Shown here piece by piece: positions 6,627 through 60,611 of a stretch of 64,000 nucleotides of DNA; within the stretch, counting starts at the first letter, position 1; each line of letters opens with the position of its first letter. The stretch is from positions 2,304,001 through 2,368,000 of the forward strand of contig CP182352.1 of the NCBI GenBank assembly GCA_048571215.1. Reading direction: 5' to 3'. The position numbers and the translations under genes were made by a program. Source of the DNA: Halarcobacter sp. Its GTDB lineage: Bacteria; Campylobacterota; Campylobacteria; Campylobacterales; Arcobacteraceae. Below the pieces are notes generated by a model that saw only the letters and a list, made by a program, of their open reading frames with translations, was not told the origin of the DNA and ran no database searches.

Positions 6627-8330
6627 TTATTTGTTTAAATCTTTTGTAAAGCTATTTAAATCAGCTCCATCAAGGTTTAATTCTTTTAGTAGTGAGTCTA
6701 CTATAGGTGATTGAGCTCTATATTTTAAGGCACTATTTACAAGTTGGTCAGGTAAAGAATCTGATGCTGAACTATTTGATTGTTCCCCACTAGAGCTTTG
6801 TCCTTGTTGACTTAGTCCATCAACTTGCAATATTTTGATACTCTCTATTTGTTCCATTGGTTTTACACTTTGAGCAATTATTTCAGGTAATTGTTCTATG
6901 AGTTTTAGTTTTATTTGCATAGCAATTTGATCTACTGATAAGGTATTTGATGCATTATTAATAGCCTCTTTTCCTTCAGCTTCAACTTTATATTCAATCG
7001 CTTTTGCTTCTGCTTTTAATTTTTCTGCTTCATTATCACTTTTTGCTGTAATAATTGCTTTATCAGCTAAACCATGAGCTAAGATTCTTTGTGCTTCTGC
7101 TTGATCTTCTGCCGCTTGTTTCTCTGCTTCTGCACCAACTTTTATGCTAATAGCTACTTTTTCTGCTTCTTGTGAAGCTTCAACTAATTCAATAGATTTA
7201 GTTCTTTCTGCAACCTCTGTTTCCCTTACAGTTTTAACTTTTTCTTCTGCTTTTACAGCCTCTGCTCTTGCTTCATCTGCTTGTGCTTTTGCAATAGATT
7301 GCATTTTTGATTTTTCTGCAACTGCAATCTCTCTATCTTGGTTTGATAGTTCTATTGATTTATTTTTTTCAATATTCTTTTCTTCTAATAATTGTTCTTT
7401 TAAAATTCTTGCTTGTTCAGTCTCTTTTTCTGAGGCAATTCTTTTTTGTTCAATCTCTTGATCAGCAAAGATTTTTGAATTTTCTGCTTCTTTTCTTTGT
7501 TCTGCTTCCTCTTTAGCAATCTCAGTAACTTGAGAAGCTCTTCTTACTGCTACTTCTCTTTCTTGTTGTAAAACGGCATACTCTTCTTCTTTTTTAATCT
7601 CTAAAGATAATCTTCTTGTTTCTAAGTCTTTTTTCTCTATTTCTACAGCGGTATCTCTTTCTATATCATTTCTTATTTTTCTTCTTGCTTCAATCTCTTG
7701 AGTTAATCTTGTAAGACCCTCTGCATCAAAAGCATTATCTGGATTGAAATACTCTTTACTTGTTTGGTCAAGTCCTGTTAAAGAGACTGATTCTAATTCT
7801 AAACCATTTTTTAATAAGTCTTCAGATACAACTTGTTGTACTTTTTGAACAAAATCTACCCTTTGCTCATGTAATTCAACCATATGCATTTCAGCAGCAA
7901 CTGCTCTTAGGGCATCTACAAATTTTCCCTCTATTAACTCTTTTAGCAAATCAGGTTGAGTAGTTCTTATACCCAACGTTTGAGCTGCAAAAGCAATTGA
8001 TTCATTTATAGGTTTAACCCTTACATAAAATTCAGCTAAAACATCAACCCTCATTCTATCTTTGGTAATAAGTGCTTGTTCATTTGACCTTTGAACTGCA
8101 AGTCTTAAAGTATTCATATTTACAGGGATTATCTCGTGTAAAATTGGTAATACAATAGCACCACCATTCATAATAACTTTTTCACCACCTAATCCTGTTC
8201 GTACAAAAGAGATCTCTTTTGAAGCTCTTTTGTATAATCTTGTAAAAATCATTCCAAGTGTAATTAATGCAAGTATTATAGTTGCTGGAATAACTAATGC
8301 CATTGATGATAAATCTAATCCAAAATCCAT
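6627..8330 (-). CDS. Flotillin/SPFH family inner-membrane protein (YqiK-like)
   Basis: N-terminal TM, SPFH domain (ALITKDRMRVDV, GLELESVSLT, FDAEGLT), long EA-rich coiled coil. Confidence 0.92.
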   Translation of the reverse strand: MDFGLDLSSMALVIPATIILALITLGMIFTRLYKRASKEISFVRTGLGGEKVIMNGGAIVLPILHEIIPVNMNTLRLAVQRSNEQALITKDRMRVDVLAEFYVRVKPINESIAFAAQTLGIRTTQPDLLKELIEGKFVDALRAVAAEMHMVELHEQRVDFVQKVQQVVSEDLLKNGLELESVSLTGLDQTSKEYFNPDNAFDAEGLTRLTQEIEARRKIRNDIERDTAVEIEKKDLETRRLSLEIKKEEEYAVLQQEREVAVRRASQVTEIAKEEAEQRKEAENSKIFADQEIEQKRIASEKETEQARILKEQLLEEKNIEKNKSIELSNQDREIAVAEKSKMQSIAKAQADEARAEAVKAEEKVKTVRETEVAERTKSIELVEASQEAEKVAISIKVGAEAEKQAAEDQAEAQRILAHGLADKAIITAKSDNEAEKLKAEAKAIEYKVEAEGKEAINNASNTLSVDQIAMQIKLKLIEQLPEIIAQSVKPMEQIESIKILQVDGLSQQGQSSSGEQSNSSASDSLPDQLVNSALKYRAQSPIVDSLLKELNLDGADLNSFTKDLNK

Positions 8331-8339
8331 ATTTTCCCT

Positions 8340-8999
8340 TTATTTTAATTTTTCTGGTATATCTTTTATTGCAAAAAAAAGTTTTTCATTTTGCCCTGAG
8401 ATTAAAACTTTTTCCCCTTGTAAAAAAACATCATTTTCATTTTCTGGTTCAATCATAAAATAATGAACCTGACCACTTTGATCTCTTACTTTTGCTTCTG
8501 CTGGTGAACCTTTTTTTGCTTTGCCTAAAGTTATAATTGCTATATGTCCTATTAGTTCATTTTTTGATATTGATGAAGTTTCATCTTTTGGTAAAATTTT
8601 TGCTACTATTCCACCAAAAATTCTTAAACTAATAATTGAACAAATAAAAGTGGGAATTAATACTATATATTGAAGCCACAAAATCCCCAAAAAACTATAT
8701 AATACAGCTTGTATTAATAATCCAATAAGGGCAAATGAAGTTAAAAATATCACTAGCAACATCATAATAGGAACTTCTTTTAGCCTAATCCAACCAAAAA
8801 ATTTAGTTAAAGAAAACTCTGTATCCACATCAAAATCCAAATCTGTATCAAAATCTGGAATTAGTGAATCAAGCATGTCAGATAAGCCTAAGCCTATTAA
8901 AACAAAAGCACCTTCTAACAAAGCAATAAATATCATCAATATAAGAGCACCAGTAAAGATAATATTATTACTGTTAAATAAGAAATCTATTAGACTCAT
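8340..8999 (-). CDS. YqiJ-like membrane protein with C-terminal NfeD-type OB fold
   Basis: TM helices; LIG..A.ITLG.A..G.PAEAKVRD..GQ.HY motif; directly upstream of the flotillin gene. Confidence 0.85.
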   Translation of the reverse strand: MSLIDFLFNSNNIIFTGALILMIFIALLEGAFVLIGLGLSDMLDSLIPDFDTDLDFDVDTEFSLTKFFGWIRLKEVPIMMLLVIFLTSFALIGLLIQAVLYSFLGILWLQYIVLIPTFICSIISLRIFGGIVAKILPKDETSSISKNELIGHIAIITLGKAKKGSPAEAKVRDQSGQVHYFMIEPENENDVFLQGEKVLISGQNEKLFFAIKDIPEKLK

Positions 9000-9628
9000 T
9001 TTCTATTTGCTTTTAAACTTTGCAATCTTTCTGATACTCTATTATCTCTTGATAATTTATCAAGTTCTGCTAATTTCATATCATCATTATTTAAAAACTT
9101 AGAATCCACCCCTGTATTTACCCTATTAAAAGCCTCTTCAGCTTTTTGCATATTGTTATTTATATTTGAAGAGGTTTTTTCCTCTTTATTGATTTTAATA
9201 AACTCTTCAAGCTCCTTTTGCATCTCTCTTTTTTTTGCATTTAAAGCATCAATATAGTTTTCTAGCTTAGTTATGTTTTTTTGTATTTGTGAAACTGTTT
9301 CCTCTAAAATAGGAATTTGTGTTTCAATATCCATTTGTCTAGATATTGCAGATTTAGCCAAATCATCCCTTTGTTCTGAGATTGCTATCTCTATTTGCTC
9401 TGTAAGTTTTTCATATTTTGATTTTTCATTTTCCATTTGTTGTTTAGTTTTTCTAAACTCAATAGTCTCCTTACCCAATGAAACCTTTACCTCATCAATA
9501 GTTGAATCAATCTCTCTAATTGTCTCTTTCATTACAAGTTCAGGAGAAAGCGATTCAGCTTTATCAATCACAGCATTTATACTTCCAGAAATCAGCCTAC
9601 TAACCCTCGATGTTATATTTTCATTCAT
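8996..9628 (-). CDS. PspA/IM30 family protein
   Basis: N-terminal amphipathic helix (RVSRLISGSINAVIDKAE..PE), RDDLAK motif, coiled coil. Confidence 0.85.
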   Translation of the reverse strand: MNENITSRVSRLISGSINAVIDKAESLSPELVMKETIREIDSTIDEVKVSLGKETIEFRKTKQQMENEKSKYEKLTEQIEIAISEQRDDLAKSAISRQMDIETQIPILEETVSQIQKNITKLENYIDALNAKKREMQKELEEFIKINKEEKTSSNINNNMQKAEEAFNRVNTGVDSKFLNNDDMKLAELDKLSRDNRVSERLQSLKANRK

Positions 9629-9657
9629 TTACTTATCCTTCAAAGTTGAGATAAAAT

Positions 9658-9690
9658 ATAATAAATAAAAAACGTCACATTTCCGTCACA
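9658..9690 (-). promoter_or_regulatory. Putative promoter of the pspA operon with TGTGACG-N4-TGTGACG direct repeat
   Basis: + strand CGTCACA at 9673-9679 and 9684-9690; on the minus strand a TATTAT hexamer follows 9 nt downstream; same layout at 20551-20583. Confidence 0.55.
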
Positions 9691-9809
9691 AATTAACTAA
9701 ATTTTGAAATTTTTATCAAAAAAACCTATTTCTAAATCTTTCTAAAACTTTTTGGATTTTTATTTAAGCTTTAATTCTTATAATCCTTAGCTTGAAGAAT
9801 GGAGAAAAG

Positions 9810-10739
9810 ATGGATATAACAAAAACGATTGAGGATTTTTTATTTCATTGTATATATGAAAAAAATCTAAGTGAAAAGACAATTAAAGCATATAAAATAG
9901 ATTTAAATCAATTTAAAAAATTTAATACTTGTAAAAACATAAAAGATATAGATAAATATACCTTAAAGGAGTATCTAAAACTATTATATGAAAAAAAACT
10001 AAAAGAGAAAACTATAAAAAGAAAGTTTGCAACGCTTAAAGCTATGTTTACTTACCTTGAGTTTGAAGAATATATTTTAGTAAGTCCATTTAGAAAAATG
10101 AAACTAAGTATAAAAGAACCTCAAAGACTTCCTAAAACAATAGAATTAAAAGAGATAAAAAAGCTTTTTATTTATGTATATAAATTAAAAAATCAGTTCA
10201 AAAATAAAAATACCTATACATACAAAAGTATCATAAGAGATATAGCTGTACTAGAACTGCTTTTTGCAACAGGTGTAAGAGTAGCAGAAGTTTGTGACAT
10301 AAAAACAAAAGATTTCAGCTCAAACTTTAGTGAACTTAAAATCATAGGAAAAGGAGACAAGCAAAGAACAATACATATCTGTAACAATGAAGTAAAAAAT
10401 GCCCTAAAAGAGTATCAACTTTTCTTCAAAGAAAAGATAAAAAAAGACGACAACTTTTTTATAAATAGATTCAATAAAAAATTATCAGAACAATCAGTTA
10501 GATTTATGATTAGAAAATATCAAGAACAAAGTAAAATAGAAAAACATCTAACCCCACATATGTTCCGCCATAGCTTCGCCACTCTACTTTTAGAAGAAGG
10601 AGTAGATATACGATATATCCAACATATGCTAGGACATAGTTCAATATCAACCACACAAATATATACAAAAGTAAGTCTGAAACATCAAAAGAAAATTTTA
10701 AATACCAAACATCCTAGACGAAGTTTTGAAGTAGATTAA
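9810..10739 (+). CDS. Tyrosine recombinase (Xer-like, no arm-binding domain), probable invertase/integrase
   Basis: Complete catalytic set: GVRVAE (R), GKGDKQR (K), HMFRH, LGH, TTQIY; ATG 9810 has a GGAG RBS (ORF track starts at TTG 9792). Confidence 0.95.
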
Positions 10740-10780
10740 TACTAGATAATATTTTTAGTTTTTTATTGTCTTTTTTAATG

Positions 10781-10807
10781 AAGGATAATAGGATATTATG
10801 AATAATA
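10781..10807 (+). repeat. Inverted repeat, left copy (IR-L), containing the RBS and ATG of the 807-aa gene
   Basis: AAGGATAATAGGATATTATGAATAATA is the exact reverse complement of 20481-20507 (27/27; 31/32 if extended to 10812). Confidence 0.95.
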
Positions 10808-13221
10808 GAGAAAATAATTTATTACTTTTAGTTGTAGGTTTAGGAGGTGCTATTGGTACAACTTTAGCATCAGGTTTTGCAATACCGAATAGTGAATCAA
10901 AATTAGGTTTAATGACAGAGAATCCATTAATAAAGTCATTAGGTATAAAATTTATTACTTCAAAAAATATTACACTTAGTGGTTGGGATATTAATCAAAA
11001 AAATCTTTTTGATATTGCTAGCGAATTAAAAATTGTTCCTGCTGAAAGACTACTTCAATCAAAAAGATACTTATCTTCAATTAAACCGCGTCCAGGCATT
11101 ACAAGAAAACATAATCTAAAAGAATGGTTTTATACAGAAATTGAACAATTAAACATATTAATAGAACAGACTCAATCTGATCAAGTTATAGTTTTAAATC
11201 TTCTTCCTACAGAACCAAATTATTTACAAGTAGATAAAGAGATAGATTGGGATAGTCTTGGTTCCATTTCATTAGAAACAGAGGAAGTGACTCTAAGTAG
11301 ATTATATTTTAAATTAGCTATAGAGTTGGGAGCTCATTATATTAACTTCACTCCAAATAATGCAGAAACTACACAATTGCAAAAACAAGCAATTTCCAAA
11401 AATCTAATTTTTTGTGGTAGAGATGGAAAAAGTGGACAAACATTTTTAAAAACTGTATTAGCACCTGCATTTTATCAACGTAACTTTAAGATTAATGGTT
11501 GGTATAGTACAAATCTATTAGGGAATAAAGATGGCTTAGCACTTGCTGATCCTGTAATATTTGAAACAAAAAGACAATCTAAATCCAAATGTTTAGAAGA
11601 TATAATAGGCTATGCACCAGGTGGAATAGAAGAAGCTTCATATGGACATCAGGTTCATATACACTATTATCCTCCAAGAAAAGATGCAAAAGAATCATGG
11701 GATAATATTGATTTTAGTGGTTATTTTGGTGAAGAGATGCAGTTAAAACTAAATTGGTTAGGAAAAGATTCTATTTTAGCTGCACCTATGGCATATGATC
11801 TTGTTAGAATAGTAGAGTTAAGTTCAAGGTTTAGTATAAAGGGTATTATCGAAGAAACAGGTGTATTTTTTAAAACACCTCTTTATAAATCAAAATATCC
11901 AATACACTCTTTTCCTACACAATTTGAAAATCTTTTAAAATACCTAAAAAAACTCAAATTAAATGACAATGCTTCTATTCATAATGATTGGCTGGATATA
12001 TTAAAAATATCTCCGCTATCTTCTCAAACAGGAATATACTTACATGCTTCAGAAAATATGCTCCCATATTCAGCTCGTTTAGCTCAAGCTTTAGAAGCTA
12101 TAGAGAGATACTCTTTAAAACCTCACGAGAAGTTTGAAGACAATGATATATATTTTGCAAATAATATCCCATTGCAAAAAGTCAAACAAAATTTGATAGA
12201 TAAATTTCAAGAAGTTCTATCTAGCTCTTGGGTAAGTGTGTCTGCTTTATCTGGGTTACATGCCACAGAAATATGCTTTAATTCATTTGTGAAATTAGAT
12301 GATGATGTATTTATTGTTTCTCCAAAACATGGTGGACATCCATCTATGGAACCTTTACTTAAAAGTATGAATGTAAATGTGCATTTTCTACCTTTTTTAG
12401 AAAATCAACTTATTGATGTAAATAAATTAAAAGATATGATATATAGTATAAAACCTGTTTTAATTGTATTTGATATTAGTGATTCTTTAAGAGAACAGGA
12501 TTTAGATTTTATAAAAGATATTAAAGGTAAATCTATAATTTTATTTGATGTATCCCAAACTTTAGGATTAATTATTGGAAAATCATTAACTAACCCTTTA
12601 GATAAAGGAGTAGATATTATAATAGGTACTACTCACAAAACATTTCCAGGTCCCCACAAAGCTATAATCGCTTCAAATAATAAAAAAATAGCAGAAAAAA
12701 TAGAAAATACAATCTCCATAAAAGTTAGTAGTGATCATACAGATCATATATTGAGTTTAAATGCTGCTTTAGATGAATTTCTACCCATAGCTGAAGAATT
12801 TGCAGAACAATGTAAAATAAATATTCAACTTTTTGCAAAGCTACTTAAAACATATAATATTAATGCTATTGATAGTGTTCCTTTAGATACTCATCAAATT
12901 TGGGTAATTTTTTTAGATCCTGAAGAAGCAAAAAAAGCTTATTTAGATTTAGAAAAAGCAGGTATATTTACAAATCTTAGAAAACTACCATTTAACTATG
13001 GATGGGGACTTAGAATAGGACTTCATGAAATAACACTAAGAGGTTTTAAAGAAGAAGATATAAAACAATTAGCAAAACTTTTTTCTAAAATTATCATAGA
13101 AAAAGTAGAACCATTAGAAGTCAGAGACCATGTAATTAAGTTAATAGAAAACCTTGTTCCATTATTAAAAACAAAGACTCCATTGAGTGAATTTTTACAA
13201 AAACATTTACTAGGAGAATAA
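10798..13221 (+). CDS. Fusion of myo-inositol-1-phosphate synthase (N-terminal ~390 aa) and an SHMT-like/threonine-transaldolase-like PLP enzyme (C-terminal ~410 aa)
   Basis: MIPS motifs VGLGGAIGTT, GWD, NFTP, GRDGKSGQT, NLLGNKDG, DSILAAP; SHMT-fold motifs HASEN, SGLHA, HGGH, DVSQ, TTHKTFPGP, GLRIG. Confidence 0.9.
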   Translation: MNNRENNLLLLVVGLGGAIGTTLASGFAIPNSESKLGLMTENPLIKSLGIKFITSKNITLSGWDINQKNLFDIASELKIVPAERLLQSKRYLSSIKPRPGITRKHNLKEWFYTEIEQLNILIEQTQSDQVIVLNLLPTEPNYLQVDKEIDWDSLGSISLETEEVTLSRLYFKLAIELGAHYINFTPNNAETTQLQKQAISKNLIFCGRDGKSGQTFLKTVLAPAFYQRNFKINGWYSTNLLGNKDGLALADPVIFETKRQSKSKCLEDIIGYAPGGIEEASYGHQVHIHYYPPRKDAKESWDNIDFSGYFGEEMQLKLNWLGKDSILAAPMAYDLVRIVELSSRFSIKGIIEETGVFFKTPLYKSKYPIHSFPTQFENLLKYLKKLKLNDNASIHNDWLDILKISPLSSQTGIYLHASENMLPYSARLAQALEAIERYSLKPHEKFEDNDIYFANNIPLQKVKQNLIDKFQEVLSSSWVSVSALSGLHATEICFNSFVKLDDDVFIVSPKHGGHPSMEPLLKSMNVNVHFLPFLENQLIDVNKLKDMIYSIKPVLIVFDISDSLREQDLDFIKDIKGKSIILFDVSQTLGLIIGKSLTNPLDKGVDIIIGTTHKTFPGPHKAIIASNNKKIAEKIENTISIKVSSDHTDHILSLNAALDEFLPIAEEFAEQCKINIQLFAKLLKTYNINAIDSVPLDTHQIWVIFLDPEEAKKAYLDLEKAGIFTNLRKLPFNYGWGLRIGLHEITLRGFKEEDIKQLAKLFSKIIIEKVEPLEVRDHVIKLIENLVPLLKTKTPLSEFLQKHLLGE

Positions 13222-13222
13222 A

Positions 13223-13966
13223 GTGGCGATGAAAAAAGATATAAAAGTATTTATTGCTTCAACAGGAACGCAAATTTATAGAGAAAAAGCTAAAGAATTA
13301 GCTGAAAGTTTAGCTAAGCATTTTACAATTTATTTTTGGGAAGATGTTTTTGAACCAGGAGATACAAATATAGAAGCATTAGAAAAAGCTGTAAAAAACT
13401 GTGATTATTCTGTAGCTTTTTTAAGTAGTGAAGATTTAACTGTGAAAAGTGGGATTGAAAACCTTCAACAAAGAGACAACCTTATCTTTGAATTTGGTTT
13501 ATTTACTGGTGCTTTAGGTAGAAAAAGAAAATTTGGAGTAACCTTTGGTAGAGGTAGTGAAATAAGCTTACCTTCAGATTTAAATGGCTTAGTTTTAATA
13601 AAAGAAAATATCAACTCACATAATTTAATAAGTGATATTTCTAATAAAATTTTAGATTGTATTCAAGAGTTAGGATTCAAAGATAAAGATAATAAAGAAG
13701 TATATTTTTTATATGATTCATATAAAGTATTTGAACTCACTCCAAAGTGTATTGATATATTTGAAAAATTATTTAATAACTTTTTAAGTATTAGAACTTA
13801 TATTGAGAGAATTATTAATATATATCTATTAAATAGTATACCTGAAATTATTATGGATAAAATGTTTGTAGGTTTCCTATATTATATAGGTGATGGCATT
13901 AAAATAACTCAAAATAATACTAATAACTCTCTTGTATATTTTTGTAAAGATAGTGCAATAGCATGA
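13223..13966 (+). CDS. TIR-domain protein (CAP12/Pycsar-effector-type TIR) with an unrecognised ~90-aa C-terminal region
   Basis: VFIAS...W..VFEPG...EAL...DYSVAF...RDNLIFEFGLF.GALGR, with the putative catalytic Glu; GTG start with AGGAG RBS. Confidence 0.88.
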   Translation: MAMKKDIKVFIASTGTQIYREKAKELAESLAKHFTIYFWEDVFEPGDTNIEALEKAVKNCDYSVAFLSSEDLTVKSGIENLQQRDNLIFEFGLFTGALGRKRKFGVTFGRGSEISLPSDLNGLVLIKENINSHNLISDISNKILDCIQELGFKDKDNKEVYFLYDSYKVFELTPKCIDIFEKLFNNFLSIRTYIERIINIYLLNSIPEIIMDKMFVGFLYYIGDGIKITQNNTNNSLVYFCKDSAIA

Positions 13967-13976
13967 GAAAAGATAA

Positions 13977-15164
13977 ATGAATATACCTAAGTGGCCAAGA
14001 ACAGATAAAATGGGGGAAAAGTATATTTTAGATGTCTTAGCTTCTAATCAATGGGGAGCAACGGGAATAAGATGGAGAAAAAAATCATATGAAACAAAGT
14101 TCACCAATAAATTTGCAAGTTATAATAATAGTCCATATTGCCTAACTACGTTAAATGGATCTACAGCTATAGAGTTAGCTCTTTTAGCTTTAGGCATAAG
14201 AAAAGGAGATAAGGTTTTAGTCACTGCACTTACTTGGGTATCTTGTGCTACTGCTATATTATCAGTAGGTGCCATTCCTATATTTATTGATATAGATAAG
14301 TCAAATTTATGTATGGATATTGCTAAAACTAAATATGCATTAAAAAAATATAAAAAGTGTAAAGCAATTTTATTGGTTCATGCTTATTGTAGTATTGCTC
14401 CAATTGAAGAATTTATAAAACTTACAAAAAAATATAAAGTACATTTAATAGAAGATTGTTCCCAAAGTCATGGTGCTAAATATAAGAACCAATTGTGCGG
14501 TTCATTTGGAGTATGTGGTATATTTAGTATGCAAAGTTCAAAAGTATTATCAAGTGGTGAAGGAGGTGCAATAATATTTCAAAAACAAAAATATTATACT
14601 AAAGCTCAAAAACTTAGACTTGATGGAAGAGTTCCTTCAAATTTTCCTATCGGACAAACCCTTGTTAAAACTTATAATCCTATAAGTGGTAGAAATAGAA
14701 CTATTACAGAGTTTCAACATGCATTACTACTTAGAGGGTTAGAGTTATTAGATAGTGAAAACAGTATAAGAACAAAAAATGCTTCATATTTAGGAGATAT
14801 TTTATCACAATATAATATTTCATATTTTTTTCAAAAGAGTAAAAAAGTACTTCCATCATTTTATAGATTTATATATTTTTTTGATAAAGAAAAAATGTAT
14901 GGAAATGATATTGATGAACATATTGAATATTTAGTAAAAAATGGTATACCAGCAGAAAGAGTTCATATACCTATACCTTTAAATCGTGCTATTCCAAAAA
15001 ATTTACAAAAAAATAAAAAATTTGTAAAAGATAATTTTCCTATTTCATTAGAAATTTATAATAGTTGTGTGACATTAGCTCATCAATGTTTACTCATGGA
15101 TGGAGTTAATATAACTGAACTATCAAAATACATAATAGAAGATAAAGTAGATAATTTTGAATAG
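13977..15164 (+). CDS. DegT/DnrJ/StrS PLP aminotransferase, BtrR/StsC-like (inosose aminotransferase)
   Basis: NGSTA, LTW..ATA, IEDCSQSHG, FSMQSSKVLSSGEGG; the N-terminal P.WP...W..G...E.KF and LR.DGR pattern recalls BtrR. Confidence 0.88.
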   Translation: MNIPKWPRTDKMGEKYILDVLASNQWGATGIRWRKKSYETKFTNKFASYNNSPYCLTTLNGSTAIELALLALGIRKGDKVLVTALTWVSCATAILSVGAIPIFIDIDKSNLCMDIAKTKYALKKYKKCKAILLVHAYCSIAPIEEFIKLTKKYKVHLIEDCSQSHGAKYKNQLCGSFGVCGIFSMQSSKVLSSGEGGAIIFQKQKYYTKAQKLRLDGRVPSNFPIGQTLVKTYNPISGRNRTITEFQHALLLRGLELLDSENSIRTKNASYLGDILSQYNISYFFQKSKKVLPSFYRFIYFFDKEKMYGNDIDEHIEYLVKNGIPAERVHIPIPLNRAIPKNLQKNKKFVKDNFPISLEIYNSCVTLAHQCLLMDGVNITELSKYIIEDKVDNFE

Positions 15165-15873
15165 AAATATAAATCTATCATGTATTGAAATAGAGATTAA
15201 TACAAAATGTAATTTTAAATGTTCTTATTGTCCCTCATCATTTAACAATGTAAAAAATTCATATATGTCTTTTGAAAAATATAAGATTATAATTGATAAG
15301 TTAAAACAAGTTGACTTTAATGGTAGATTATCATTTCATTTTTACAATGAACCTACTTTGCACCCTGATCTTGAAAAATTTATAAAATTTTCCTCAAAAG
15401 AACTTCCTAAAGCATTATTGAGACTATATACAAATGGATCAAGATTAAACGATAAGCTTTATTGTAGATTATCAAATGCTGGTGTGGATCAATTCTATGT
15501 AACACTTCATAAACAAACCCCTAATCTACCTACAAGACCAAAGCAGGTAGTAAGAGAATTGAGTAACATAGATATTACAAATAGAGGAGGTTCATTGCAT
15601 AGTATTAATAATCATTTAGAGATACCTTGTATGCTTCCTCAAGAGTTCTTATTATTTGATATAAATGGAAATGCACTAATGTGTTTTGAAGACTATTATA
15701 AAACTGAAATATTTGGAAATATTTTTATAGATTCTTTAGAAAAAATTTACTTCAATACTAGATTAGAAATATTTCGTAAACATCTATCTCTAGGAGATAG
15801 AACAATTTGTAATATTTGTAAAAAATGTGATAGCAAAGCTTATCAAAAACTAGGTCAGGTATATATAGAATGA
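15157..15873 (+). CDS. Radical SAM enzyme with twitch domain, BtrN-like (aminocyclitol dehydrogenase)
   Basis: IEIEIN..CNFKCSYC, GRLSFHFYNEP, YTNG, NRGG, C..P, CFED, CKKC; size and motif order match BtrN as recalled. Confidence 0.85.
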   Translation: MNRNINLSCIEIEINTKCNFKCSYCPSSFNNVKNSYMSFEKYKIIIDKLKQVDFNGRLSFHFYNEPTLHPDLEKFIKFSSKELPKALLRLYTNGSRLNDKLYCRLSNAGVDQFYVTLHKQTPNLPTRPKQVVRELSNIDITNRGGSLHSINNHLEIPCMLPQEFLLFDINGNALMCFEDYYKTEIFGNIFIDSLEKIYFNTRLEIFRKHLSLGDRTICNICKKCDSKAYQKLGQVYIE

Positions 15874-16820
15874 ATACAACTTTAGAAATATGGCCAGCAA
15901 AATGGTTACAAAATATTCATTGGACATTTTGGGAAGAAACAGTTAAAAACAATTTTGGCTTAAATAGTCCATTTTTTGATATTAATTTTTTTAAAAGTAT
16001 TATATCTTATCAACCCTATAGTTATAGTATGGTATTTAAATCTAAAGGGGGTATTATTGCTATGTTACCTTTTGAAGTGGCTACAAAAAATAGAGCAAGA
16101 CTTTTATCTCCAGATATAGTAGGACTACATGGACTTATAATTCATAAAGACAATTTAAATAAAATTGATTTAAAAACTGCCATAAAAAAAGCTGGATTAA
16201 GATATTTACTCTTTGATCAAGTTCCTGGATGGCAAAGTACTTTTAATCCTTTTACAAGAATAGAAGATAATGCACCAAATCTAATACTTTCAAAAAGTAT
16301 TGAACGCACTAAAGTAAGTTGGAAAAACTCTGGGCAAAATACATTTGTAAATATAGATTTTAAGACTAGAAAACTTGAGAAAAAAGGTAGGCTTACTTAT
16401 ATATTTGATACAGTATCTCCTTTACTTTTTAGATATTTATCTTTAAATAAACAAAATCAATTTTATAAAACAGGTGAAGAGAATCTTTTTAGTACTAAAG
16501 AGTTTCAATCTATTTTAAATTATTTAAAAATAAATAAATCAAACAATTGTAAACTGGTCCTTTCAGCTCTTTATTTAGATAATATTCCAATAGCTGCACA
16601 TTTAGGATTATCTTCTAAAAAGACTTTTTATTCTTGGTATCCTGTGATGGATAAAAAAATAGGAAATGATTCCCCTGAATTAGTGTTATTTGGATATATT
16701 ATAAATACTCTCCATAAAAAAGGTTACAAAGTTTTAGATTTTGGCACTCAACCTATGCTTTATAAAACAAGATTGAGCAACTCCTCTTATAAAATAAAAA
16801 GAGGACTTATTCGCCCTTAG
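15870..16820 (+). CDS. GNAT-fold acyltransferase (CelD/BcsL, Acetyltransf_6-like)
   Basis: LSALYL...PIAAHLG...SWYP...SP..VL...G..VLDFG....YK.R. Confidence 0.8.
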   Translation: MNTTLEIWPAKWLQNIHWTFWEETVKNNFGLNSPFFDINFFKSIISYQPYSYSMVFKSKGGIIAMLPFEVATKNRARLLSPDIVGLHGLIIHKDNLNKIDLKTAIKKAGLRYLLFDQVPGWQSTFNPFTRIEDNAPNLILSKSIERTKVSWKNSGQNTFVNIDFKTRKLEKKGRLTYIFDTVSPLLFRYLSLNKQNQFYKTGEENLFSTKEFQSILNYLKINKSNNCKLVLSALYLDNIPIAAHLGLSSKKTFYSWYPVMDKKIGNDSPELVLFGYIINTLHKKGYKVLDFGTQPMLYKTRLSNSSYKIKRGLIRP

Positions 16821-19800
16821 TTACTCTAAGAATTTCTCTTGCCATTTCTTCAAAATATGTGTCAAAGTCATAAGTTTTAAATATTTTTTCGTACCAATTA
16901 AAAAATAATTCTAAGTGTTTACATGAGTCATTTAGTAAAAAGTATTTTGCTATTTCATCATGATCCCATTCTTGACCTGAAATATCTAAGTCAAGTTTAT
17001 TAGCTAATTTATCAATTTCAACATATAAATCATAATACTTTTCTTTATTTAAAACAAACTTTACTTTTTTAGGATAAATTTGAGCCATTCTAGCTAATGT
17101 CTCTTTTATCCAATATTCTGGAATTATATTTTCATCTTTTATTTTTAAAACTTCAAGTATAGCTTTAAGAGATGCATCTGGAAATATACGAATCATCTTT
17201 CTTATGGATAAAAAGTTTAGTTTTGTATATTTTACATCTATTGCTTTTGGGACTTTTTTTAATTCTTTTGCTTCCATAACATTTTTAATTCCTTTTGAAA
17301 ATATTGGTATTTCATTATCATAATTATACAAAAGTCCCTCTATCATAGCAACTTGATTCATGGGATTATATGTTTCATTAAGCGGATTTTCACATGATAA
17401 TGTTAAGAAAAAATTCTCTGGCTGAGTTTCTTCAAAATAATACATCCATTCTTCCATTTCATTTAATATTTTTTGACAACCATCTCTATCATTTTTATCA
17501 AGTTTAAATATGGCTATTCTTTGTGCTAAGCATAATGCAGCATCTATTGAAAAGTAAAAATTTGACTTAATAAAATGTCTTAATATCCCCATACCCACTT
17601 CAGAATCAAAATACGCAGATTTTAATATACAATATCTAGCTAATATGTGTTCTATTCTATATGAATATAAAGTTGGATTACTTTTTGTCATGTCCGCTGG
17701 TTCTTTAACATCTGAACAAAAGAACCTCAATATTTCAATTTCACTATTATTAAGTTCATCTTTATTACAAACTTTTTTATACATATTTCGTAGTTGTTTT
17801 GCATAATTCTCAACATCATCACTCATTTTCCATAGATATTCTAAATGGTTATGATTTGCATCTAATGAAAAGAAATTATCAGCATAGTTTTTAATAGACA
17901 ATATAAAACTATTTATTAAATTATTTTCAAAATTAATTTTATTGGTTGAACTATTTATAACTCTATTTAGTGTATAAAGTATATTTTTTCCTATATCTCC
18001 ATCTAATTTAATACTTTTATCAAAATAAATTGATAATACAAAAATCAAACCTACCAATTGTTCTGATGTTATCGATGAGTTTTTTGCAAAATAACTTTCA
18101 AATTTAGAAAGCAGTTTTCCTCTTCTACTTGGAGTTAAAAAGTTTAAATAGATACCATATCTTGACTTTTCATACCATTTTTTATTTCCGCTTAATATAG
18201 TTTCAATTAAAAAACTTACAGCATGTAAATTATCTGAACAATACTCAACTATAAATTCTAAGAACTGTTCTTTGTCGTTAAAAGCTTCTTCAATAAAATC
18301 AAAGCCTTCACCACCATTTTCAACTAGAATTTCTTGCAAAGTATCTTTTATTAGAAGTTTTACATCATTATTTTCAATATTTAAAAGCTCTCTTAGTCTT
18401 GATATATCTGTAAGTAATGAACTTCTATTTGGTGAGTCAATGTAATTACAGCTAATATTCACTAGTGCAGATTTTAAACCTTGTATTAAATGAAACTCTC
18501 CTTTTGACTCATTTAAAATATTAACGATTTTAGAAGTGTCAAACCCCTCATCTAATTCATAAAGTTCTATAATAGATAAACCCAAAATATACTCAAAAAA
18601 TCTATCATATGTAAAACTATATCTATCATTATGAGAGCTGGTTTTATTGATTATTCTTTCATCATACAAAATATCATAAAAAGTTTTTTCTTGATCTTTT
18701 TGAGGAAATAATGATACTAAACTTTCATCAAAAGAAAATTGTTTTTTAGAAGTATTATACCCCATTGTTTGTTTTAAAAATCTACTACCTAATGATTTTA
18801 ATATTCTTTCAAACATAAACTTCTTTGGTAGTTTTTCTAAATACATTTTAAAAATAGAAAAAGCAGGTGCATATTTTGGAATTGTATCATTATTATACGC
18901 TCTTGCCATAAGATTCATTAATAGTGGATCAGATAAATGTTCTTTAAAATGCTCATCAAGACTTTCCCACTCACCTAATAAATTATAGGCTCTTTTATAT
19001 GATTTAAAAGCTAAAGGAGCCTCTTCTTTATTATATTTTTCTATTTTAAAAATTTTACTATGATGATAAAACTTAGTTATATTAGATGAATTATGCTCCA
19101 TTTGATTCCAATATATCTCTCTGCATGAAAATAGAATTTTTATTCTATCTCTTAAAACACCATCTAAAGCTAGATTTTCTATCTCTTTTTTTAGATTGCT
19201 AGGTGTAATTGTAGTAAATTCATTTATTGCATCAATTTGTATTAAAAGATTTAAATTATTTAGCTCTAAATAAGCATTTAGTGCAGAAAACCAAGTATCT
19301 TTTAAGTAAGGTTTAAATGTAAATTTTTTACTTAAGTATTCTAATAAAGAATTGTTATTATCAAAACTCTCTGGCTCTATTGTTAACGTTAAAAAAGAAC
19401 TACATTCATATCTTTTCATTGTATTATAATATATATATGTAGATTTACCCATCCCAGCTTCACCAACTAATGCAAAAATTTTAGAGTCATTTTTTAAAAA
19501 ATCATTATAGGAGTTGTTTACAGATATTCTTTCTATCAAAGTATCCATACCACCATCTGGAATTTTAGATTCTAAATTTGATAAAGCAGAATTATTAATA
19601 TTTTTTAACTTTTGTAATAAGTTTTCTTCTTCGGCATATAATCTAAATTCTTGATGGTTACTTATATACTTTAAATATTTCTCTTTAATAGGGTTATTAT
19701 TGTTAATATGGGAAAAAGTTTCTTTCATAAATTCTGAAAAATAGTATCCTAAGGTTATATATTCTCTATTTAGAAAATGATTTGTTCTGTTTTTTTTAGA

Positions 19801-20490
19801 CATGACATATACAGGGTTTTTAGTACTTTGATCTATAAACTCAAACAAAGGCTTATCTTGAAAAGAATAACCTATGGATAATATAGGATTTAAGAATATG
19901 TCAGTTAAAAACTCTTTAACTGATTCTTGAAAACTCATTTTTTCACTTCTAAATACAGCTTCAACATATGATAAATCACCCCATAAATGAGCAATAACTA
20001 CTTTATTGTTATTTAGTTGTTCTTTGATTTTAGCTATATTTTCAGTATGATTATCATCTCTTGTAAAAGAAATAGATTTTATGCTTTCATCATTCATACA
20101 AACAGCTTTGTGTGCATCTTCAAGAAGATCGTCATAGTTTGTAGTAAGGATAATTGTAGAATAACCATTTCTTTCCCTTACTCTTGCTAGACAAAAAGAT
20201 AAAAATTCAATATGCACTGAATTGGGGTGTCCGACTAATTTAGTTTCACATTCATTTTGAATATCTTTTTCATATTTATTTAAAAATTCATCAAATTTAT
20301 TTTCTAATTCATCTTTTGTTAAATTATGATAACCATATCGATTTAGGATATCTTCTTTAATTTCAGTATATGATGGTATTTTCTCACCATTTTCTTTTAT
20401 TCCTTCAGTTGATGCGCCCGCACCAACTAAAATTGTCAAAGTACCTTTATAGCTTATCAAGTTTTCAATAATTTCTTCTATATTATTCAT
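16807..20490 (-). CDS. SIR2-like domain + STAND (NACHT/Avs-like) NTPase + long helical C-terminus; candidate antiphage protein
   Basis: LVGAGAS, TTNYD, IGYSFQD (SIR2_2); GEAGMGKS Walker A, LLIQIDAINE Walker B, FSCRE, DPLL, FTYDRFFEY. Confidence 0.88.
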   Translation of the reverse strand: MNNIEEIIENLISYKGTLTILVGAGASTEGIKENGEKIPSYTEIKEDILNRYGYHNLTKDELENKFDEFLNKYEKDIQNECETKLVGHPNSVHIEFLSFCLARVRERNGYSTIILTTNYDDLLEDAHKAVCMNDESIKSISFTRDDNHTENIAKIKEQLNNNKVVIAHLWGDLSYVEAVFRSEKMSFQESVKEFLTDIFLNPILSIGYSFQDKPLFEFIDQSTKNPVYVMSKKNRTNHFLNREYITLGYYFSEFMKETFSHINNNNPIKEKYLKYISNHQEFRLYAEEENLLQKLKNINNSALSNLESKIPDGGMDTLIERISVNNSYNDFLKNDSKIFALVGEAGMGKSTYIYYNTMKRYECSSFLTLTIEPESFDNNNSLLEYLSKKFTFKPYLKDTWFSALNAYLELNNLNLLIQIDAINEFTTITPSNLKKEIENLALDGVLRDRIKILFSCREIYWNQMEHNSSNITKFYHHSKIFKIEKYNKEEAPLAFKSYKRAYNLLGEWESLDEHFKEHLSDPLLMNLMARAYNNDTIPKYAPAFSIFKMYLEKLPKKFMFERILKSLGSRFLKQTMGYNTSKKQFSFDESLVSLFPQKDQEKTFYDILYDERIINKTSSHNDRYSFTYDRFFEYILGLSIIELYELDEGFDTSKIVNILNESKGEFHLIQGLKSALVNISCNYIDSPNRSSLLTDISRLRELLNIENNDVKLLIKDTLQEILVENGGEGFDFIEEAFNDKEQFLEFIVEYCSDNLHAVSFLIETILSGNKKWYEKSRYGIYLNFLTPSRRGKLLSKFESYFAKNSSITSEQLVGLIFVLSIYFDKSIKLDGDIGKNILYTLNRVINSSTNKINFENNLINSFILSIKNYADNFFSLDANHNHLEYLWKMSDDVENYAKQLRNMYKKVCNKDELNNSEIEILRFFCSDVKEPADMTKSNPTLYSYRIEHILARYCILKSAYFDSEVGMGILRHFIKSNFYFSIDAALCLAQRIAIFKLDKNDRDGCQKILNEMEEWMYYFEETQPENFFLTLSCENPLNETYNPMNQVAMIEGLLYNYDNEIPIFSKGIKNVMEAKELKKVPKAIDVKYTKLNFLSIRKMIRIFPDASLKAILEVLKIKDENIIPEYWIKETLARMAQIYPKKVKFVLNKEKYYDLYVEIDKLANKLDLDISGQEWDHDEIAKYFLLNDSCKHLELFFNWYEKIFKTYDFDTYFEEMAREILRVTKGE

Positions 20491-20507
20491 AATATCCTAT
20501 TATCCTT
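20481..20507 (-). repeat. Inverted repeat, right copy (IR-R), containing the RBS and ATG of the SIR2-STAND gene
   Basis: + strand TATTATTCATAATATCCTATTATCCTT is the reverse complement of 10781-10807. Confidence 0.95.
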
Positions 20508-20550
20508 TATTTAATATATTATAAAATAATCTTAATTAATATAATAAATA

Positions 20551-20583
20551 ATTCTATCATATTTACGTCACAAATTCGTCACA
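20551..20583 (-). promoter_or_regulatory. Putative promoter pointing into the cassette: TGTGACG-N4-TGTGACG-N9-TAGAAT (extended -10 TGnTAGAAT)
   Basis: + strand CGTCACA at 20566-20572 and 20577-20583; ATTCTATCA at 20551-20559. Confidence 0.6.
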
Positions 20584-20750
20584 TTAATATTATAAAAAAG
20601 ATTATTTTTAAAATTTATATTGATTTGTTTATATATAATAGTTATAAAATTTACCAATGGAGATTTTTAAAAGAATAAAATTTATGATTGTACATACATA
20701 AAAGTATGCAAATAAATTTTATTTTTTAATATAGAGATTGTATAAGAATA

Positions 20751-22793
20751 CTAATCTTCCTCTTTTTTTACAAGTCCTGCTTCTTTTAAAAAGGGGCTAT
20801 TTACAAAGTCCATTTTTTTTATCTTATCGTATTTGGCGTAGCTTAGATATAAAACATCTTTTGCTCTGGTTACTGCTACATAAAAGAGTCTTCGCTCCTC
20901 TTCTAGACTTCCACCTTTGCTCATTAGTTTTCTATTTGGAAATCTTCCATCCATAAGGTCGATTACAAAAACCTCTTTAAACTCTAAACCTTTACTAGCA
21001 TGAACAGATAGAAGGTTTACCCCCTCACCTTCACTCATCTCTCCACCACCTAGAATCATTGAGTTTACGAACTTTGAAAGGTCTGAGAAATTTCTTGCTA
21101 AATTTTTTAGAAGCATCACTTTTCTATTTATTTTTGCTAAACCTTTTGCTTTTTGGGTTGGATGTATTGTTCCATCTTTTTGAGTTGCTCTTTTTGTTGC
21201 TAAAAAATCTTTTATTTTTGAATACATCATAGATGAAGTTATTGAAGTAACTAAACTTTCTGGATTCTTTGTTCTTCTTAGTTGTTTTATAAGTAGATAA
21301 AAATCATAAATATATTTTGCTCCATCAACACCCAGTTTTGGATGTTTTAATATTGGATTTCCTAAAAATGCTTCCTCAAAACCACAATCTTTAAACTTAG
21401 AAACTGAACCTAACTCTAAAAAATCATCAAAAAGTCCAAGCTGAATATTTTTCACTTTATTGGTTTCAAAAGGATTGTTTATAGCTTCATCAGGGTGAAA
21501 TAAACCTTTAAACATATCTCCACCACCTAATTTTATCAAAGCATCAAAGATATCCTTTGCAATTGACTTTCCTATCCCTTTACCATGCTCTAATACATGG
21601 ATAAATGCCATCATATCATTATGACTTAATTGCATAACCAAAACATCTATTACAAACTTTACCTCAACAGAATCAAAAAATGACATTCCACCTCTTCTTT
21701 TAGCTGGAATCCCATACTCTCTTAGGTTTGATTCTATTCCATCTGCACTTGAATTATTTCTAAAGATTATTGCTATCTCTTCATGGGGTGTAGAACTTTT
21801 TGAGATAAGGTCTGAGATATAATGGTATTGGGAAAAAAGTTCATTAAACTCCAATAACTTGGGTTTTATATCAATATCAGTTCTCATAACTTGCAAATCT
21901 TTTTCATAGACTCTTTCGTTATGTTCAATAACTCTTGTAGCTAGATCAAGTATTGGTTTACTTGAACGATAGTTTTTTCTAAGTGTATAAACAGTTGCAT
22001 CTTTATATCTAGTTGAAAATGTTGAGATAATCCCTATATCTGAACCATTAAAAGCATAAATACTTTGATCATAATCCCCTACACAAAAAAGGGATTTTGG
22101 CTTAAACCCATCTAATAGTCTACCTTGCAATGGATTAGTATCTTGGTATTCATCAACAAGAATCTCTTTAAAAGGAAATTCATTTTCTTTCAAAGTCTCT
22201 AGCATAATTGTTAATAAATCATCAAAATTAGCATATCCATATTTTATTTTTAACTCATTGAACTCTATAACCACATCTTCATAAATAGCCGTATATAGTT
22301 CATGATCTGAATTTTTATTTATTATCCATGTGGCAAAATCCTCGCCCTCGTTTGAGTTTAGGTATAAAGAGTACATATCATATAAATACCCTCCATCATA
22401 AGGATTTGCGTCATCACTTCTATCGTAAAAAACTCTTTTTTCATAAAGTGATTTAAAAAGTGTTTTTAATTCACTTGGTTGTTTTAGTGTTATATTTACA
22501 TTTAACTGTTTTAATAGTTTATATGAAACAGAGTGAAAGGTTCCTGCCATTATTTTTTGGGCAATCTCTTTTCCAAAAAATTTAGCAACTCTTATTACCA
22601 TCTCTGCTGCTGCTTTATTTGTAAAAGTTAAGAGAAGTATCTCTTCAGGTTTAACACCTTTATTTATCAAATTTGCTATTCTTCCAACAATTGTAGAGGT
22701 TTTTCCTGTACCTGCACTAGCAATAATTAGGTTGTAGCCTTCATTACATGTTGCTGCACTTAGTTGTTCTTGATTTAGATTTGATAATGGCAT
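20751..22793 (-). CDS. UvrD/Rep/PcrA family ATP-dependent DNA helicase
   Basis: ASAGTGKT, LVDEYQDTN, VGDYDQSIY, NYRS, HASKGLEF, EERRLFYVAVTRA. Confidence 0.96.
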   Translation of the reverse strand: MPLSNLNQEQLSAATCNEGYNLIIASAGTGKTSTIVGRIANLINKGVKPEEILLLTFTNKAAAEMVIRVAKFFGKEIAQKIMAGTFHSVSYKLLKQLNVNITLKQPSELKTLFKSLYEKRVFYDRSDDANPYDGGYLYDMYSLYLNSNEGEDFATWIINKNSDHELYTAIYEDVVIEFNELKIKYGYANFDDLLTIMLETLKENEFPFKEILVDEYQDTNPLQGRLLDGFKPKSLFCVGDYDQSIYAFNGSDIGIISTFSTRYKDATVYTLRKNYRSSKPILDLATRVIEHNERVYEKDLQVMRTDIDIKPKLLEFNELFSQYHYISDLISKSSTPHEEIAIIFRNNSSADGIESNLREYGIPAKRRGGMSFFDSVEVKFVIDVLVMQLSHNDMMAFIHVLEHGKGIGKSIAKDIFDALIKLGGGDMFKGLFHPDEAINNPFETNKVKNIQLGLFDDFLELGSVSKFKDCGFEEAFLGNPILKHPKLGVDGAKYIYDFYLLIKQLRRTKNPESLVTSITSSMMYSKIKDFLATKRATQKDGTIHPTQKAKGLAKINRKVMLLKNLARNFSDLSKFVNSMILGGGEMSEGEGVNLLSVHASKGLEFKEVFVIDLMDGRFPNRKLMSKGGSLEEERRLFYVAVTRAKDVLYLSYAKYDKIKKMDFVNSPFLKEAGLVKKEED

Positions 22794-60512: not shown

Positions 60513-60611
60513 TGGCGAGAAGGCGTAGGAATCGAACCTACCGCGGTGTTTGTCATCAAAACCGCCATCAGGGTTGAAGCCTGTGGTGTCCACCAGGATC
60601 ACATGCCCCCC
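60513..60611 (-). tRNA. selC: tRNA-Sec (anticodon UCA)
   Basis: GGGGGGC...CTGGTG...CAGG-CT-TCA-AC-CCTG, long variable arm, GTAGG-TTCGATT-CCTAC, ends GCCA; 99 nt. Confidence 0.95.

Follow-up and report, generated by a model that had tools for sequence, protein, structure and literature searches.

Bacterial immune signals are, to our knowledge, derived from nucleotides or NAD, and in Panoptes and Hailong a constitutively made molecule represses a toxic effector. Phase variation by DNA inversion is driven by recombinases, for example by FimB and FimE at fimS and reportedly also by PinQ. In the PanDA system it is cyclic di-AMP which represses PanE (PMC13640721), and the antiviral STAND proteins described sense phage proteins (PMC13581612). 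The locus treated here lies in a stretch of 64,000 nucleotides from Halarcobacter sp. (Arcobacteraceae; assembly GCA_048571215.1, contig CP182352.1, positions 2,304,001 to 2,368,000), which as a whole is called the window. It is an island of seven open reading frames (ORFs), namely a Xer-like tyrosine recombinase, an operon of five genes for an aminocyclitol-type pathway with an embedded TIR gene, and a convergent gene for a SIR2-like–STAND protein, inserted between pspA and uvrD. The operon and the STAND gene fill a 9.7-kb segment between two inverted sites (Table 1), and both orientations of this segment occur. The reading favoured here, with a probability of about 0.45, is an immune cassette of two arms flipped by the recombinase, in which an inosamine ligand would hold the STAND protein in check and the flip would alternate the arms.

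The two 27-bp sites form a perfect inverted repeat which exists genome-wide in one copy per strand, and of 200 stretches of 14 kb drawn at random from the same genome no more than one has an inverted repeat of at least 25 bp. The two arms face each other, and each site carries the ribosome-binding site, the start codon and the first codons of its arm, those of the MIPS (inositol-1-phosphate synthase) gene on the left, where the site core GATAA-N7-TTAT overlaps them, and those of the STAND gene on the right. Inversion was followed in Logan contigs from four runs (X1-X4), which are metagenomes of one study. There the sequence breaks exactly at the sites into the pieces 8500-10807, 10781-20507 and 20481-22500. 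A simulated assembly gave one piece from the reference alone and, from the reference together with the inverted allele, seven unitigs with two new 33-mers; the coordinates of the seven unitigs are those observed in the Logan contigs. The sites are bridged in X1 and X2 by four records of 33 bp; two of these agree with the reference throughout, the other two over 30 letters only, and X3 has at least three of the four among the matches listed. By word depth the share of the alternative junction comes, as rough figures, to one third in X1 (12.7 and 13.5 vs 35 and 21.2) and to half in X2. Inverted sites, an adjoining recombinase and both orientations, the marks of an inverton, are all present. The adjoining Xer-like recombinase is presumed to be the invertase of the cassette; the NCBIfam models for XerC, XerD and XerA score below their cut-offs with it. 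A TATAAT hexamer just outside the right site is a candidate −10 element of a fixed promoter that would fire into the cassette. A sigma-70 promoter scan called fewer sites than in shuffled sequence, and the hexamer was not among them.

Table 1 Features of the island in window coordinates (aa amino acids)
Feature	Position	Strand	Remarks
Xer-like tyrosine recombinase	9792..10739	+	ATG start probably 9813; Pfam Phage_integrase E 6e-39
Left recombination site, 27 bp	10781..10807	+	Perfect inverted copy of 20481-20507; contigs break there
MIPS fused to SHMT-fold PLP (pyridoxal phosphate) enzyme, 807 aa	10798..13221	+	Pfam MIPS + SHMT
Cap12/Pycsar-type TIR, 247 aa, C-terminally truncated	13223..13966	+	Pfam CAP12-PCTIR_TIR E 9e-22
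BtrR-like (deoxy)inosose aminotransferase, 395 aa	13977..15164	+	Pfam DegT; 2c7t E 5e-68
BtrN-like radical SAM dehydrogenase, 238 aa	15157..15873	+	Pfam Radical_SAM + SPASM; 4m7t E 2e-39
GNAT acyltransferase, 316 aa	15870..16820	+	Pfam Acetyltransf_6 E 4e-15
SIR2-like domain + STAND/NACHT-type NTPase + all-helical C-terminal sensor, 1227 aa	16807..20490	-	Pfam; fold match Avs4 8dgf
Right recombination site, 27 bp	20481..20507	-	Overlaps STAND ribosome-binding site and first codons
TATAAT hexamer just outside right site, candidate −10 element	20518..20523	-	Read by eye; kept in the G017 element

The pairing of the two arms recurs in related clusters. A scan of genome contigs gave 190 MIPS relatives, of which 80 were kept and four belong to the subfamily of the window (L012-L015); the subfamily pattern on metagenomes gave eight loci, six of the subfamily (L125, L126, L128, L129, L130 and L131, the last apparently the same gene as L128) and two of an outgroup. 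Of these ten subfamily loci four are cut short, L014, L129 and L131 at the MIPS gene and L125 within BtrN. A full-length STAND homologue faces the enzymes in all six informative loci, on one contig in L013, L015, L126, L128 and L130. The sixth, G061, consists of two contigs, each running into an FMN (flavin mononucleotide) glutamate-synthase-like gene and starting with the same 20-bp site, and their adjacency is inferred. None of the 76 other MIPS loci has a STAND homologue. The related clusters come from Acidobacteriota, a metagenome-assembled genome of Desulfobacteraceae and metagenomes, and the MIPS and STAND trees are congruent for seven pairs. The MIPS subfamily of the window and its STAND family occur together in different phyla.

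Paired inverted sites precede both arms in the relatives as well, with 17-25 bp in L013, L015, L126, L128 and L130 and 20 bp in G061; the L126 contig starts and ends at its sites, and those of L130 and L012 end at one. In the window and L128 the MIPS arm is the one next to the recombinase, in L013 and L130 the STAND arm; near L015 no recombinase was found. The recombinases beside L013 and L128 are 48-50 % identical to that of the window, and that of L130 is more distant. Directly outside the STAND-side site of L015 lies a gene for a fusion of a methionyl-tRNA-synthetase-like protein and an FkbM methyltransferase (L015:17935-20343). At the DNA level the cluster was matched in no other of 60 relatives, and in G002 and G016 the pspA and uvrD flanks are adjacent to each other. 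No further full-length STAND protein of the family appeared in 300, 401 and 401 sampled genomes, and the plasmid search gave no STAND match. The viral contigs held no relative of the MIPS::SHMT fusion or of the STAND protein, their one pattern match being an outgroup MIPS. A further full-length STAND relative (P0314, 41 % identity) is known from its sequence, without genomic context. Three other candidates were dropped: G445 matches over part of the NTPase only and lacks genes of the cluster within 20 kb, and P0121 and P0315, considered as split forms, correspond to two X4 contigs with many single-base gaps and are probably artefacts.

MIPS converts glucose 6-phosphate to inositol 1-phosphate. 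In the fusion protein at the head of the operon the MIPS motifs and the PLP-lysine motif are intact, and four full-length fused relatives exist with identities of 60, 53, 52 and 34 %. Its SHMT-fold domain appears about equally near to archaeal SHMT and to threonine transaldolases (95 bits with archaeal SHMT and 95 bits with 7k34, titled threonine aldolase; 158 bits with the SHMT model and 148 bits with the fluorothreonine transaldolase model, both under cut-off). BtrR is the best solved relative of the aminotransferase, the next family following at E 6e-33, and BtrN is the sole protein match among solved structures for the radical SAM enzyme, in which all seven cysteines of the BtrN-like protein are retained. 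Cyclitol synthase, dehydrogenase and inosose aminotransferase, the core set of the aminoglycoside type, are present together. By known enzymology the BtrN-like and BtrR-like enzymes would oxidise and then transaminate inositol 1-phosphate to an inosamine, which the PLP domain and the GNAT protein probably acylate or aminoacylate; relatives would phosphorylate, amidinate or glycosylate it instead. An inosamine core of the product is likely because the route of L130 fits the order inositol, inosamine, amidination known from streptidine (PMC13707489).

The tailoring genes differ among the relatives. GT2 and an APH-type kinase are added in L013 and L126, in L015 a remnant of GT2 is left, and L128 has two BtrN genes together with a kinase. 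In L130 the additions are a kinase, a histidine phosphatase and an amidinotransferase, which matches the inosamine-phosphate amidinotransferase StrB1 best (E 7e-114). BtrR directly follows MIPS in six related clusters and is replaced by an FMN enzyme in a seventh; the enzyme arm of G061 comprises the MIPS::PLP fusion and the FMN enzyme only. The GNAT gene has no match in the related clusters and is a tailoring gene of the window copy alone. By its gene content this copy is a mosaic, with a fusion like that of G061, BtrR and BtrN like those of the others, and TIR and GNAT in addition. A GNAT gene adjoining a DegT gene was also found on a Streptomyces plasmid in the plasmid search. The plasmid search with BtrN led to a butirosin-like cluster on plasmid pHS1 of Sodalis praecaptivus (L011:583-15496) with a DegT aminotransferase, a deoxyinosose (DOI) synthase, a glycosyltransferase, a BtrN-like enzyme and an ATP-binding cassette (ABC) exporter.

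For the STAND protein a model with a pLDDT of 79.9 predicts an NTPase followed by helical repeats, and the Walker A and B motifs are present. Foldseek with this model gave Avs4 as best match (8dgf, E 3e-8), followed by animal NLRs, and the order effector, STAND NTPase and helical sensor of Avs/STAND receptors is found here. No Avs profile matches the window protein at E 0.1; its relatives match Avs2 profiles partially over the NTPase (best E 1e-14). A search of the ESM Atlas with the sensor was uninformative (best score 0.78). The SIR2-like domain keeps TTNYD at 116, and a further motif is HLWGD, HLLGD, KLFGD or RLFGD in the seven rows matched, HLWGD being that of the window. We take the corresponding SIR2 family motif to be KLHG and, on the same assumption, its His to be the equivalent of His171 of DSR2. 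H171A is given as a catalytic mutant of DSR2 (PMC11850899). The SIR2-like domain seems to be without a catalytic His and may be an adaptor. In four STAND relatives the N-terminus holds a CHAT protease domain in which His and Cys motifs are present; that of L130 has no SIR2-like domain. In L128 SIR2-like and CHAT domains are encoded by a gene of their own (L128:5362-6879) that is not part of the invertible segment; the N-terminus of its product resembles that of the cassette STAND protein, and it is a candidate for a protease recruited in trans via the like domains.

The same recombinase family occurs in 18 of 151 genomes of the family of the host, and its cargo was read in 23 loci. In L118, L133, L135 and L141 the gene of an ATP-grasp ligase converges with that of a large partner, annotated, where at all, as a P-loop protein; L117, L137 and L138, and by likeness L139 and L142, have a methyltransferase with a partner, and some loci hold unrelated cargo. 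By a strict pattern six loci have an inverted site pair (L117, L118, L121, L130, L133 and L135). At the same pspA-uvrD site G017 has an element (L117:3445-5997) with a 90 % identical recombinase and near-identical sites. Unlike the window, it has as cargo a methyltransferase together with a protein of 247 aa that matches nothing in Pfam; cargo has therefore been exchanged at this place. A second cassette of the same design exists in the genome of the window itself (G000:C1:2229250-2233460, L118:3251-7463) with a 63 % identical recombinase; its inverted GATAATAGGTAGTTAT sites, at a distance of 3.3 kb, enclose the genes of a 707-aa P-loop/TPR protein and, convergent with it, an ATP-grasp ligase. 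To the left of the island the window has pspA-like, yqiJ and flotillin (yqiK-like) genes (6627-9628), and farther to the right a tRNA-SeC gene on the minus strand (60517-60611). Heptads of CGTCACA are paired near the island ends (9673-9690 and 20566-20583) and are present in G017 too. As attachment (att) sites they were dropped on account of four further copies in the genome (812438, 1330023, 2378659, 2408019); they are more likely the site of a regulator.

The TIR protein belongs to the Cap12/PycTIR subfamily (PF10137), keeps Glu90, which is invariant in the family alignment, and its gene has its own ribosome-binding site and a GC content at third codon positions (GC3) like that of the neighbouring genes. 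The only other match below 1e-30 among 1.84 billion representatives is P0165, with 44 % identity over residues 5-244. The window ORF ends at the position of residue 244 of the 444 of P0165, past the first strand of a GAF-like domain; the model of P0165, of modest quality (pLDDT 64), has a TIR and a second domain with GAF-like matches. The same C-terminal extension is carried by P0181, P0204 and P0284, so that full-length relatives have 444, 465, 469 and 482 aa against 247 aa in the window, where a complete ligand-sensing domain is missing. These four proteins form a small TIR family whose GAF-like domain has no Pfam match. A remnant of the missing part was found nowhere else in the genome at E 0.01. 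A sequencing error was discarded as the cause, the 9727-bp piece being identical in three runs, which are possibly the genome's own source. Among the 15 loci scanned, which did not take in the neighbourhoods of the closest MIPS::SHMT fusions (P0001-P0004) and of P0165, P0181, P0204 and P0284, the TIR profile matches the window locus only. As a conserved member of the system the TIR protein was rejected, being absent from all six informative relatives, and it is probably a passenger or a remnant, although a subtype of the cassette with TIR may exist. The 40 plasmid records held no full-length TIR-GAF protein, and ten viral loci have the TIR alone. The window proteins gave no match to ThsB or ThsA of Thoeris (the relative L094 gives weak ThsA SIR2 matches), the seven island proteins none to a CD-NTase or pyrimidine cyclase (Pfam, NCBIfam, PADLOC), and no defence model was reached at the system level with PADLOC.

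The original prediction, made from the letters of the window, stands in its observations and in part of its interpretation. The five ORFs lie where it had placed them and are tightly coupled, with gaps of 1 and 10 bp and then overlaps of 8 and 4 bp; their assignment as MIPS::SHMT-like, TIR, BtrR-like, BtrN-like radical SAM and GNAT was borne out by Pfam and solved relatives. As it had said, no glycosyltransferase, exporter or phosphatase is among the seven ORFs of the island (Pfam); three genes of the inositol-monophosphatase family lie elsewhere in the genome, and the self-resistance genes expected of aminoglycoside clusters do not occur in the island (Pfam). The inositol-derived aminocyclitol pathway is supported too, as are its place on a mobile element and its tie to a protein of immune type. 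The truncation of the TIR was overlooked, and the unit was drawn too small, since the invertible segment also includes the convergent SIR2-like–STAND gene. The proposed co-occurrence of the five genes gave way to that of MIPS with STAND, and of the finding named in advance as refuting, homologous clusters without TIR in lipopolysaccharide, capsule or flagellin loci, the first half came true, while the window locus is not of this kind.

In the favoured reading of a flipped two-arm cassette the inosamine product would stay in the cell as a 'self' ligand which keeps the STAND protein off. Loss of the ligand by phage shut-off, sequestration or loss of the element would release the protein, which would then arrest or kill the cell, via the CHAT protease where present. 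With each flip the arms would trade places behind the recombinase transcript and the right-end promoter, and this could let the ligand be stocked before the receptor is made; the truncated TIR would not be needed. Slightly better than even odds are given to the wider proposition that throughout the family a mini pathway of aminoglycoside type makes a lineage-specific inosamine as ligand of a dedicated NLR-like STAND protein, i.e. a natural-product second messenger or self-mark, whose acyl, phospho, amidino or glycosyl decoration would diversify in step with the receptor while inversion times the arms. Several points weigh against the favoured reading. Ligand, binding pocket, promoter activity and phage phenotype are all inferred. 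In all seven SIR2-like motifs read W, F or L replaces the family His, and the window STAND protein has no CHAT domain, so that no effector is assigned to this copy. Congruent trees indicate co-inheritance, which is possible without interaction, and comprise only seven pairs. G061 is without BtrR in the locus and has no close BtrN match (best E 8e-9), and one shared ligand is not assured because one STAND family pairs with very different tailoring sets. As to the inversion, the four metagenomic runs of one study are possibly the source of the genome itself, and the alternative 33-bp records are known by the extent of their match and not by their letters.

Other readings differ in what the two arms do. 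The arms might be two independent defences, a STAND protein that senses a phage protein directly, as Avs proteins do, and an enzyme set for an antiphage compound akin to aminoglycosides, with the flip choosing between them as a form of bet-hedging. Avs4 as best fold match, the Avs2 profile matches of the relatives and the reported block of phage infection by aminoglycosides (PMC9239200) speak for this, but the 6/6 pairing of MIPS and STAND is left unexplained, given the many other pairs with the same recombinase family, and it is considered unlikely. Alternatively, infection might cause the inosamine to be made or unmasked, so that it switches the STAND protein on as an activating signal, with a full-length TIR-GAF protein as a former second receptor whose sensor was lost here. 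The GAF-like domain of the TIR relatives and the retained Glu90, ribosome-binding site and neighbour-like GC3 would agree with this, and the contexts of the closest fusions lie outside the survey; on the other hand, the TIR is absent from every related cluster surveyed, the enzymes are without a phage-sensing domain (Pfam) and product carried over after a flip would kill. An activating ligand fits badly because each flip would be lethal, yet both orientations are common, and this possibility is judged quite unlikely.

It is very unlikely that the cassette is not antiphage at all and serves a phase-variable inosamine modification of a glycan, lipid or protein, with the STAND protein as partner in addiction or kin discrimination. 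The GT2 genes of L013 and L126, the modifying enzymes in other pairs of the recombinase family and the failure of defence models at system level would suit such a role, against which speak the position outside a surface-glycan locus, the lack of an exporter and the SIR2-like, CHAT and STAND domains typical of immunity. Highly improbable, finally, is the five-gene model of the original prediction, in which the TIR protein ADP-ribosylates or senses the aminocyclitol in place of the missing glycosyltransferase. Tight translational coupling and the intact catalytic motif are in its favour, and the window copy has neither GT2 nor a CHAT effector, a gap which the TIR could fill. However, relatives that glycosylate carry GT2 (L013, L126), those without GT2 (L128, L130, G061) are without TIR as well, and the TIR of the window is cut in mid-domain.

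If the self-ligand reading is true, the host-made amino-inositol controlling a STAND protein would represent a new chemical class of immune ligand, aminoglycoside enzymology would be linked to NLR biology, and the presence of recombinases next to defence genes would have a reason. Compact and self-contained, the cassette consists of parts of known kinds; for their coupling no counterpart was found in a full-text literature search, the coverage of which excluded most subscription papers and supplements. A survey of prokaryotic STAND proteins from 2026, whose supplements might list the clade, has none of 'inositol', 'inver' and 'recombinase' in its main text (PMC13581612).

With the Panoptes-type systems the cassette shares the proposed logic that a synthase constitutively makes a molecule repressing a toxic effector; those systems use nucleotide signals, one synthase, membrane effectors and a plain operon, whereas here a multi-enzyme inosamine pathway, a STAND protein and DNA inversion are found. 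Avs proteins (Avs4, Avs2 and the SIR2-STAND Avs5) have an N-terminal effector-type domain, the STAND NTPase and a helical sensor in common with the window protein, which differs in the missing profile match and the apparently absent His of its SIR2-like domain; its family also stands always beside biosynthetic enzymes in an invertible segment. Enzymes of the same types act in the pathways of butirosin (BtrR/BtrS and BtrN), streptidine (MIPS, StrB1) and rhizopine (MosB) (PMC13707489, PMC6668481), but the cassettes join MIPS to BtrN and BtrR without DOI synthase or NAD-dependent inositol dehydrogenase, have no exporter, comprise three to five genes and are paired with STAND; aminoglycoside clusters like that of Sodalis have a glycosyltransferase and an ABC exporter, and the window island has neither. 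The TIR protein is of the same subfamily and has the same catalytic motif as the Cap12/Pycsar effectors (CBASS TIR-STING, PycTIR), but no cyclase is nearby and the sensor, GAF-like in its relatives, is cut off. Inverted sites with an adjacent recombinase and two orientations in one population are shared with switches of the fimS/PinQ type. In the cassette, however, whole genes flip past fixed flanks, the site itself holds a ribosome-binding site and a start codon, and one arm is a set of enzymes, the other an NLR-like protein.

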